Below, in pieces: positions 8,514 through 11,982 of a stretch of 39,133 nt of DNA (its first letter is position 1; the number at the start of each line of letters is the position of its first letter). The DNA comes from Escherichia phage vB_EcoP-22664BS1. The position numbers were made by a program, and so were the translations under genes. Location of the stretch: sequence record MZ234009.1; one strand, written 5' to 3'. Below the pieces are notes generated by a model. That model did no database searches, had not been told where the DNA came from, and worked only from the letters and a program-made list of their open reading frames with translations.

Positions 8514-8561
8514 AACCTATAGTTACTACCAGTCTAACATACTGTTTTACAAGGAGTTTGG

Positions 8562-8584
8562 ACTTAACTATCACTATAGGGAAG
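8562..8584 (+). promoter_or_regulatory. Phage RNAP promoter near right genome end (phiOR-like)
   Basis: acttaactatcactatagggaag matches promoter family. Confidence 0.65.
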
Positions 8585-9731: not shown

Positions 9732-9850
9732 GTACCACATCGAAACAACGGTGAGTCCCAACACTGAAACGGGATAGCACGGCGACGACAGCCAACGCGA
9801 ATGCTCTTTAACAATCTGGATAAACTCTTAATGTGCGCCGATAGCGACTA

Positions 9851-9902
9851 ACTACAGGGTCTTTGAGTCTACATCTGAAGGCCCTGACTGATAGTCACTA
9901 AC
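9851..9902 (+). promoter_or_regulatory. Early-region conserved element (actacagg...ggcctgactgatagtcactaac), putative RNase III processing site
   Basis: One of four related copies, each preceding an early gene. Confidence 0.35.
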
Positions 9903-9909
9903 TTAAAGG

Positions 9910-10164
9910 ATGGACACTATGAAACACTTAAGCACAATCACTAATCGCAATGAAGTATTCGTGAACACTAAAGGTTATGCGTGGATTCAGCTTAAAGAGA
10001 TGACAGGAGCGCGTCACCGTGTGGTAGTGCGCAAGGTATCAAGCAAGCAGTTCAGCAACTACAGCGTCGATACTGTGCGTATAGACAACGAGACATACCT
10101 GATAGACTCGCAGATAACCGTGAGTCCTACAGTGGGCGTCTCAGCTCCTTATTTCGCTAACTGA
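9910..10164 (+). CDS. Early protein, unknown function (84 aa)
   Basis: ORF track; RBS aaggatgg; first gene after host promoters. Confidence 0.5.
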   Translation: MDTMKHLSTITNRNEVFVNTKGYAWIQLKEMTGARHRVVVRKVSSKQFSNYSVDTVRIDNETYLIDSQITVSPTVGVSAPYFAN

Positions 10165-10173
10165 GAGTGATTA

Positions 10174-10219
10174 ACTACAGGTCGTTAGACTGATAGCGGC
10201 CTGACTGATAGTCACTAAC
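10174..10219 (+). promoter_or_regulatory. Early-region conserved element, copy 2
   Basis: actacaggtcgttagactgatagcggcctgactgatagtcactaac. Confidence 0.35.
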
Positions 10220-10247
10220 ACATAATTAACTTTGAGAGGATATAACT

Positions 10248-10754
10248 ATGGAACGTAATGCTAACGCATACTATGAGCTGCTGGCTGCAACCGTTGAGGC
10301 ATTTATCGAGCGTATTCAGTACGACCACCTGACTCAAGATGACGACTACAGCGATGCGCTGCATGAGGTCGTAGACGGTCAGGTTCCTCACTATTACCAC
10401 GAGATTTTTACGGTGATGGCTGCTGATGGTATAGACAACGAGTTCGAAGACTCTGGGATGATACCTGAAACCAAGGACGTAACGCGTATCCTACAAGCTC
10501 GCATCTATGAGGCACTTTATAACGACGTGTCTAATAGCTTGGATGTAGTCTGGTTTGAGGATGAAGAGGCAGACGAAGAGGATGAATATTGGGTAGTTGA
10601 CGCTAAAACAGGCGCAATAATTGTGCAAGCTGTAGCTCTTGAGGTCGCTACTGCATGTGCCAAGGTTAACTATGCGGCAGGTCGCCACCTGAAGGTGGAA
10701 GACATCAATGATAACGTAGTGTTCGACCCTGCGGCTGAGGACTGCGAGCGATGA
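10248..10754 (+). CDS. 0.3: Ocr-like DNA-mimic anti-restriction protein (gp0.3 homolog) with about 50-aa C-terminal extension
   Basis: [43 protein letters not shown] matches T7 Ocr core; acidic stretch [10 protein letters not shown]; 168 aa versus 117 aa in T7. Confidence 0.8.
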
Positions 10755-10900
10755 TAACTTACGGTTTATGCCAGCACCACGTCACCAACGCCCGGCTTAT
10801 GGTCAAGACCGGGCAGTTAGACCACGATTGGGCTATGCGTCTCTTGAAAGTGGTCTACAGGAGACGCAAGCGTATACACGACAGTTTACACGCTAAGTGA
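10751..10900 (+). CDS. Small basic protein (49 aa), ATGA overlap with Ocr stop
   Basis: Hand-translated [49 protein letters not shown]; no clear RBS, translational coupling possible. Confidence 0.3.
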
Positions 10901-10903
10901 CAG

Positions 10904-10947
10904 ACTACAGGTCATCAATGCTGGTGGCCTGACTGATAGTCATTAAC
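10904..10947 (+). promoter_or_regulatory. Early-region conserved element, copy 3
   Basis: actacaggtcatcaatgctggtggcctgactgatagtcattaac. Confidence 0.35.
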
Positions 10948-10963
10948 AACTGAGAGGGAAGAT

Positions 10964-11191: not shown

Positions 11192-11323
11192 CCTAAATAA
11201 ACAGGAGAGAACCAAATCATAGCTTGACCATAACACTGACGTGATGGTACTGAGTGATAGACGAGAGGTCATCGACTGATAGGTGGCCTCAAAGATTACC
11301 ACTTACATTGATAGGAGTTAACT

Positions 11324-11954: not shown

Positions 11955-11959
11955 TTCTG

Positions 11960-11982
11960 ACTTAACTATCACTATAGGACTC
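11960..11982 (+). promoter_or_regulatory. Phage RNAP promoter upstream of the RNAP gene (A at +3)
   Basis: acttaactatcactataggact matches promoter family; lies about 75 nt upstream of gene 1 start. Confidence 0.6.

Follow-up and report, generated by a model that had tools for sequence, protein, structure and literature searches.

Ocr is a textbook DNA mimic and a tool for bypassing restriction. The DNA analysed here, 39,133 nucleotides of Escherichia phage vB_EcoP-22664BS1 (accession number MZ234009.1, hereafter the window), contains an ocr-like gene whose product continues well beyond the end of T7 Ocr, and the question is whether this extension is a real part of the protein, where it comes from and what it may add. 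The window as a whole is a Kayfunavirus genome in permuted form; it matches best Escherichia phage vB_EcoP-101136BS1 (Kayfunavirus LM33P1 by classification), the Ocr of which was sequenced independently and is 99.4% identical to that of the window.

The gene and its Ocr core

The gene occupies positions 10248..10754 on the plus strand, starts with ATG and codes for a protein of 168 aa; a Shine-Dalgarno-like GAGAGGA, read from the sequence on the same strand at 10234..10240, lies 7 nt upstream of the start codon. Its position is that of a class I early gene, upstream of a gp0.4 homologue and the RNA polymerase gene. Residues 8-94 match the Pfam family "DNA mimic ocr" (PF08684) with 100.7 bits and an E-value of 7.3e-29, the curated cut-off of the family being 25 bits, and the protein is assigned to PHROG 2568 ("ocr-like anti-restriction") with an E-value of 8.5e-53. 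In a phmmer search against PDB, residues 11-113 align to residues 11-116 of T7 Ocr (1S7Z and nine complex structures, E = 1.3e-24). The alignment with 1S7Z is ungapped up to residue 98, with identical numbering through F54 and L82, two residues with a role in the Ocr dimer interface (PMC10802264) which are invariant in an alignment of 34 long-form Ocr proteins, i.e. those possessing the extension. The earlier note had recognized an Ocr-type DNA mimic at 10248-10754 and had quoted its sequence exactly, and these matches bear it out.

The core, defined by homology to PF08684 and 1S7Z, comprises residues 1-104 (10248..10559, plus strand) and includes the two dimer-interface residues. It contains 23 aspartate or glutamate residues out of 104 (22% D+E) and has a pI of 4.1, the pI of the full 168-aa protein being 4.05; for T7 Ocr, 34 such residues in 116 are given in two reports (PMC3439906, PMC4872106). 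The AlphaFold2 (AF2) model of the full-length monomer has three long core helices, the last of which is predicted in this K1F-type core to stop at residue 95 and to be followed by coil, with pLDDT values of 49-56 at residues 60-80 and a pTM of 0.53. A Foldseek search of PDB with this model, the core part of which has low pLDDT, did not retrieve 1S7Z, so the core of the full-length model is considered unreliable; for this reason the Ocr assignment was based on sequence, and the model does not fix where the module lies with respect to the mimic surface. Judged in this way, the protein clearly has an Ocr-type DNA mimic core, and since this core retains the invariant F54 and L82, inhibition of type I restriction-modification (R-M) and BREX by DNA mimicry should be retained. 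Short-form homologues of 108-113 aa with about 59-66% identity were also found on viral contigs of 76,973 bp (L044) and 141,261 bp (L047), so the core is not limited to phages of Autographiviridae size.

Linker, C-terminal module and tail

The core is followed by the poly-acidic linker DEEADEEDE (residues 105-113; 10560..10586, plus strand), which was delimited by composition, is predicted to be coil and consists of acidic residues at eight of nine positions. GAGGATGAA is repeated inside its coding stretch, and the length of the linker among homologues varies from none at all to about 20 residues. Next comes the C-terminal module, residues 114-161 (10587..10730, plus strand), starting with YWVVDAKTG and delimited by the AF2 model, dN/dS and occurrence. 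The protein ends with the acidic tail AAEDCER (residues 162-168), which together with the stop codon covers 10731..10754 on the plus strand and carries GAGGA at 10737-10741; the tail end of long Ocr proteins, of the EEDCE type, matches the C-terminus of the short forms. The protein of the window thus has the YWVVD module in frame after an acidic linker and an EEDCE-type tail, the layout of the K1F-type long Ocr.

This anatomy refines what had been noticed from the letters of the sequence. About 115 residues had been aligned with T7 Ocr, and the core homology holds, but the homologous part ends near residue 104-113; the acidic stretch that had been pointed out is present, but it is the linker at 105-113 and not the end of the protein, since the tail is acidic again. 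The extension of about 50 aa was seen correctly (about 55 residues are absent from T7 Ocr), as was its not being strongly acidic: the 48 residues of the module contain 12% D+E, in comparison with 22% in the core, and have a net charge of -2 and a pI of 4.9.

The module is predicted by AF2 to adopt a beta-beta-alpha-beta-beta fold, with strands at residues 114-118 and 124-129, a helix at 131-143 and strands at 148-151 and 157-159. Its pLDDT is about 88-92 within the full-length model and 86.8 when modelled alone, with the fold pattern unchanged, and the models predict with confidence that it folds independently of the core; the structure prediction proposed in the earlier note has thus yielded a compact domain with pLDDT of about 90. 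The module is tethered flexibly and not integrated into the core, to judge by the variable length of the linker and by the dispensability of residues 99-116 in T7 Ocr, which can be removed with little loss of anti-restriction (PMC3439906). The same observation makes the C-terminus of Ocr a permissive site for hanging a domain. No in-frame start codon with a Shine-Dalgarno sequence which would allow separate expression of the module was found upstream of it when the sequence was read by eye.

The homologue alignment likewise proposed in that note finds the extension to be conserved, in 71 phage records and at least 120 protein clusters. In a tblastn search of 50,697 phage genomes with the full protein, Ocr is present in 572 records, 71 of which have a query coverage of at least 80%; the 56-residue C-terminal segment alone also gives 71 records, and, among the module matches listed, all fall under an Ocr gene or its mislabelled equivalent. 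The carriers include K1F (gp0.3, 169 aa), LM33_P1, CLB_P1, SH3 and Mt1B1_P3. In a collection of 5.8 billion proteins, at least 120 protein clusters of 162-179 aa with 67-96% identity have the core-linker-module layout. In addition, phage IME15 possesses a 173-aa Ocr of identical layout with a divergent module (QWYVINDEESGPHVVAYYDSLEAAIEAANERYNTLGKLCHVEDDTSSEVLYNP) that is 25-31% identical, so the architecture exists beyond the close K1F group.

The dN/dS values (Nei-Gojobori, 17 long-form genes) are 0.16 for the core, 0.38 for the linker, 0.39 for the module and 0.17 for the tail, and the module is a translated part of the protein kept by purifying selection, looser than that on the core. It had been considered that the extension might be common and functionless in homologues; common it is, with 71 records including K1F, but the dN/dS of 0.39 and the confidently predicted fold speak against its being functionless. 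Variation within the module is concentrated in the helix and strand 2, while the YWVVD strand, residue 145 and H147 are fixed. In distant copies the conserved residues are of the scaffold type only, and no polar constellation of the catalytic type is kept in the IME15 copy; the module is not a DNA mimic, and there is no sign of its being an enzyme.

The distribution of the module over hosts is uneven. The K1F-type gp0.35, the product of the gene following ocr, was found in 166 phage records and the module in 71, two separate tblastn counts in which the smaller set need not be contained in the larger one. Among Escherichia records there are 46 with the module versus 85 with gp0.35, and among Salmonella records 3 versus 32 (Fisher p = 6e-6, uncorrected for phylogeny, with the counts coming from the same kind of separate tblastn searches and hosts taken as the first word of the organism name).

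The long form has been in databases since the genome record of K1F and is routinely annotated as "Ocr", and no mention of its extra domain was found in the literature searched; in a paper on a Hafnia phage, a 169-aa Ocr with a BLAST match over 112 residues only is given without comment. Six of the matching Ocr records, four long forms and two short ones, are labelled "protein kinase": LT594300 (LM33_P1), OM937123 (CY1), OM355495 (ZH4), MZ398247 (IME177), OR924234 and MG004687. No kinase domain was detected with Pfam in the Ocr of the window, and the label looks like a propagated misannotation. JSS1_004 proved to be the gp0.7 kinase and no Ocr.

Searches for relatives of the module outside Ocr gave little. 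No significant match was found in Pfam, PHROGs or the PDB sequences, nor did tblastn find a stand-alone homologue in the 50,697 phage genomes. Word-indexed searching of the 5.8 billion proteins, for which the module was used by itself as well as in a profile that included the IME15 copy, yielded no more than two fragments of ORFs, each of which stems from a frameshifted Ocr gene. When 1.84 billion representative proteins were searched exhaustively with an HMM, a single match other than Ocr emerged, with four weak stretches in a repetitive surface protein of 2,313 aa (P0123), probably from Firmicutes, which contains four copies of the motif (EELNRICKELYS.GSLTARSMTVEDINKAVGYDP), at residues ~1787-1825 and in three more repeats. 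This repeat, which has no Pfam family, aligns to the part of the module that comprises the helix and strands 3 and 4, with an hhalign probability of 85% and 40% identity over 35 columns; the likeness may be due to homology or to convergence, and nothing is concluded from it. A metal-binding role of the DINDN loop (cadherin- or EF-hand-like) was also considered and rejected, as its support was a non-significant Cadherin-17 match and the loop is not kept in IME15.

At the level of predicted structure, the module has weak fold matches to ClpS and the C-terminal domain of bL12 (bL12-CTD), and to the small phage inhibitors T4 Dmd and AcrIF9 (Acr-like), and its fold is shared by stand-alone phage proteins of 45-63 aa. 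On these models it is best described as a generic small alpha/beta sandwich of the kind common in phage inhibitor proteins and a member of no named family.

Downstream gene, loss and exchange of the module

The gene next to ocr (10751..10900, plus strand) codes for a 49-aa protein corresponding to K1F gp0.35. Its homologues carry the precomputed assignment PF26807 (Phage_T7_GP04), while the protein of the window has no match in the local Pfam copy at E-values up to 0.1; it is probably, judging by homology, the counterpart of T7 gp0.4. T7 gp0.4 is an inhibitor of FtsZ. The ATG of gp0.35 at 10751 overlaps the stop codon of ocr (ATGA), and the GAGGA at 10737-10741, nine bases upstream of this ATG, is the ribosome-binding site for gp0.35; the arrangement suggests that gp0.35 is translationally coupled to Ocr, and it does not belong to the extension. 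The tail codons show zero synonymous differences in six gene pairs, from which we infer that conservation of the EEDCE tail is probably owed largely to this ribosome-binding site and not to the function of the protein. Where ocr usually stops with TGA, the phage of the window and its nearest relative (L001) have CGA (10749-10754), which adds R168 and shifts the overlap between the two genes from TGATG to ATGA.

Several RNA elements flank the two genes. A putative hairpin of the RNase III type (stem/internal loop/stem) lies upstream of ocr at 10160..10225 (plus strand; -23.8 kcal/mol, z = -4.8) and another one downstream of gp0.35 at 10890..10952 (plus strand; -19.3 kcal/mol, z = -2.9). They belong to the repeat families D1/D2 (AGTGAnTAACTACAGG ... 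GGCCTGACTGATAGTCAyTAAC), which precede successive early genes at 9837-9908, 10160-10225, 10890-10952 and possibly near 11253 and fold as stem/internal loop/stem hairpins with z from -2.9 to -4.8. By analogy with the processing of T7 early mRNA, we take the hairpins to be RNase III processing sites; the analogy suggests that they may delimit one processed 0.3/0.35 mRNA, as in T7. Two copies of GACTTAACTATCACTATAGG inside a longer 52-nt repeat, at 8561-8580 and 11959-11978, look like candidate promoters for the phage RNA polymerase of the T7/K1F type, one of them located ahead of the early region and the other just upstream of the RNA polymerase gene.

The earlier note had suggested that the extension could reflect a fusion with a downstream gene. 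For the present downstream gene this is ruled out by the intact state of gp0.35 after both long and short ocr genes; nor has the segment a stand-alone homologue in the 50,697 phage genomes or the 1.84 billion representative proteins searched, and the small gene downstream of the short ocr in phiHAO2-2 has no similarity to the module either. The other explanation put forward there, a sequencing error or a mutated stop codon resulting in readthrough, is rejected. Nothing speaks for it except that T7 Ocr has 117 aa, and it is contradicted by the nearly identical gene of the independently sequenced relative and by pairwise DNA alignments of long and short genes with closely related cores: the short gene equals the long one minus a single in-frame block of about 150-200 nt, and the segment after the core is this additional block, not the sequence lying downstream of the stop codon of a short form. 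The difference between the forms is an in-frame indel and not a stop codon. The extension is genuine and conserved and adds a module to a textbook protein.

Short forms are common: cores with 80-90% identity matching residues 1-97 only were found in 204 records. The C-terminus of short K1F-type Ocr proteins reads VVWFEAEEDCE or similar. The ends of the missing block are situated in repeated acidic codons, GA(A/G)GAGGA (microhomology), and there are at least four distinct in-frame deletion junctions, WFEAEEGDE among them. In a core tree, the long forms are interleaved with the short ones. The simplest reading of these alignments would be an ancestral module deleted time and again through recombination between the acidic repeats on its two sides, or slippage there; that insertions occurred more than once at identical positions appears far less parsimonious. 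No gene complementary to the absence of the module was found in the early region among 17 loci.

Apart from being deleted, the module seems to travel. Protein distances in the core show no correlation with those in the module (Mantel r = -0.07, p = 0.74), one pair of long forms having cores that are 1.9% and modules that are 31% divergent and another pair 15% and 0%, respectively, so the module is also swapped as a cassette between phages.

Some unusual variants were encountered. In the metagenomic assemblies L080-L082 (SRR33193082-84) and L083-L084 (SRR23593145/250), ocr is frameshifted, by an extra G in TGGG in the three runs of the former series and by a different frameshift in the two further runs; the product breaks off where the module begins or within it, with the remainder left as a small ORF. 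These may be either natural variants with loss of the module or assembly errors; if real, they mean that the module is dispensable for phage viability. Phage IMEP24 (MZ648215; L004 1162-1722) codes for a 186-aa Ocr in which the module runs as far as PLKDAIA and is then replaced with an unrelated 50-residue tail (VSRSPSKVITGDTYHLAGKDFKSKDEAIRYAVELAGG) having no similarity to the module; this genome has no gp0.35, and the variant looks like a product of recombination or deletion within the module. A 167-aa metagenomic protein (P0099; longest contig 38,886 bp) is a chimera: Ocr with the initial two-thirds of the module passes at GRHLK into the C-terminal portion of gp0.35, as would result from a deletion between the LKV/LKA motifs, which are similar in the ocr and gp0.35 genes. 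In a 37,555-bp T7-like genome (IMG/VR UViG_638277131; L053 906-1328), a T7-type Ocr of 140 aa has its acidic tail replaced, apparently by a deletion that joined gene 0.3 with a reading frame further downstream.

Possible role of the module and comparison with known systems

What the module does can be approached from the features described above. Independent folding, a variable tether, a variable helix and strand 2, no catalytic constellation kept in IME15, cassette exchange, recurrent loss and host bias together lead us to propose, tentatively and with somewhat less than even confidence, that it serves as an accessory domain for protein binding, optional and on a flexible tether, which adds or tunes a counter-defence activity. 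The core would dimerise via F54 and L82, mimic bent B-DNA and sequester type I R-M enzymes and the BREX methyltransferase in the same way as T7 Ocr, with the acidic linker tethering the independently folding 48-residue domain, so that, by the structure of T7 Ocr, one copy would be placed at each distal tip of the dimer. There, the module might give Ocr a second contact, either with an extra surface of the known target complexes or with a different component of host defence; the second defence target suggested in the earlier note would be compatible with the data. Such a contact would be useful on some hosts and dispensable or costly on others, and a host-dependent benefit would explain purifying selection, cassette exchange and repeated deletion via the flanking acidic-codon repeats.

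Some observations count against this reading: selection is more relaxed on the module than on the core, no gene of the early region is distributed in a way complementary to the module, hhalign detects no likeness to ClpS, and repeated loss and frameshifts also fit an appendage which is weakly useful or nearly neutral. It is quite unlikely that the module is a decaying remnant, i.e. a small early gene captured in frame in ancient times, now nearly neutral and being deleted, which would account for the at least four independent deletion junctions and the natural frameshifts, for IMEP24 and P0099, in which only the beginning of the module is kept and is fused to something else, and for the existence of stand-alone phage proteins of 45-63 aa with the same fold. 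The frame, however, is unbroken in over 120 clusters and 71 genomes, the dN/dS of the module is well under 1 with strictly conserved strands, IME15, a distant lineage, retains a recognizable copy, and the fold is predicted with confidence. Alternatively, the module may have no target of its own and only stabilise or solubilise this Ocr subtype, or it may work as a steric bumper on the ends of the mimic and so tune the way in which Ocr fits its known targets. This passive role, which we hold to be unlikely, would suit a K1F-type core with the last helix shorter than in T7, ending at residue 95 before the coil, as well as a module that is mildly acidic and without detectable homologues elsewhere, and deletion of the C-terminus of T7 Ocr is linked to structural destabilisation in PMC3439906. 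Yet the 204 records with the core only indicate that the core does not need the module, a flexible linker of variable length argues against a fixed structural role, and independent recombination and a fast-evolving helix face are not to be expected of a mere stabiliser.

The invariance of F54 and L82 in the long forms deserves attention in another respect, as AriA of the PARIS system binds monomeric Ocr through these very residues and their mutation lets T7 escape PARIS (PMC9122126; PMC10802264). The module might therefore block or evade abortive systems that sense Ocr (PARIS AriA, Ronin, type III R-M of the EcoR22I type) while wild-type F54 and L82 are kept. Two systems sensing Ocr, Ronin and EcoR22I, are known from wild E. 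coli (bioRxiv 10.1101/2023.04.06.535777), Escherichia phages are enriched in the module, and the presence/absence polymorphism and variable surface of the module fit an arms race. Short forms, on the other hand, also keep both residues, the module, placed at the tip if the geometry of T7 Ocr applies, would be remote from the dimer interface read by AriA, and all the support is circumstantial, no data on the PARIS sensitivity of Kayfunavirus phages having been found in the literature searched; self-protection of this kind appears quite improbable. We give a similarly small chance to the wider proposal that the module is a built-in counter to Ocr-detecting systems (PARIS, Ronin, type III R-M switching to cell death) or that it inhibits one more defence of E. 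coli. Were it true, a single polypeptide would disarm restriction and BREX and also neutralise the back-up immunity provoked by anti-restriction proteins, and exchange and loss of the module would record an ongoing arms race at a third layer.

Whichever of these holds, Ocr is a known trigger of PARIS-type "anti-anti-restriction" immunity, and the two-domain form is carried by a sizeable group of Kayfunavirus phages including K1F, LM33_P1 and CLB_P1, which are studied as model or therapeutic phages. The natural short forms with near-identical cores are ready-made deletion controls, which makes testing cheap. If the module has a target of its own, as in the accessory-domain reading that we prefer, it would represent a new small inhibitor fold and a new case of fused counter-defence functions; if it has none, the long-form Ocr can be treated as ordinary Ocr.

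Among known folds, ClpS and bL12-CTD were matched in the structural searches with marginal scores, about 40 of some 80 ClpS residues aligning with the module. The module, however, is about half the size and has a single helix, where these domains have two after strand 1, and hhalign detected no similarity to E. coli ClpS (probability 0.15%); the likeness to ClpS/bL12-CTD, Dmd and AcrIF9 is a marginal one of predicted fold only, with no family membership. ArdA, the second classical DNA mimic with an anti-restriction function, is likewise built of more than one domain.

Compared with T7 Ocr (gp0.3, 1S7Z, PF08684), the core of the window protein is 59% identical over residues 17-94 (tblastn) and likewise very acidic, and its gene is likewise among the first early genes, with the ocr stop codon overlapping the start of the gp0.4 homologue that comes next. 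In contrast to T7 Ocr, which has 117 aa and ends with an acidic tail, the window protein has an acidic linker and a 48-residue alpha/beta domain inserted before the tail, and its sequence after residue 95 differs from the end of the T7 helix. The short K1F-type Ocr proteins, such as gp01 of phiHAO2-2 (110 aa) and those of T7-like phages of Klebsiella and Enterobacter (108-116 aa), have cores 85-89% identical to that of the window and the same EEDCE or EEDCDD end, and most short genes of the K1F clade precede the same downstream gene as the long ones do; unlike the window protein, they possess neither linker nor module. The closest counterparts are the 162-179-aa proteins of K1F (gp0.3), LM33_P1, CLB_P1, SH3 and Mt1B1_P3, with core, acidic linker, module, EEDCE tail and gene order all as in the window, so that the differences from these other Kayfunavirus long forms are allelic only, the module being about 68% identical to the K1F copy and R168 being extra.
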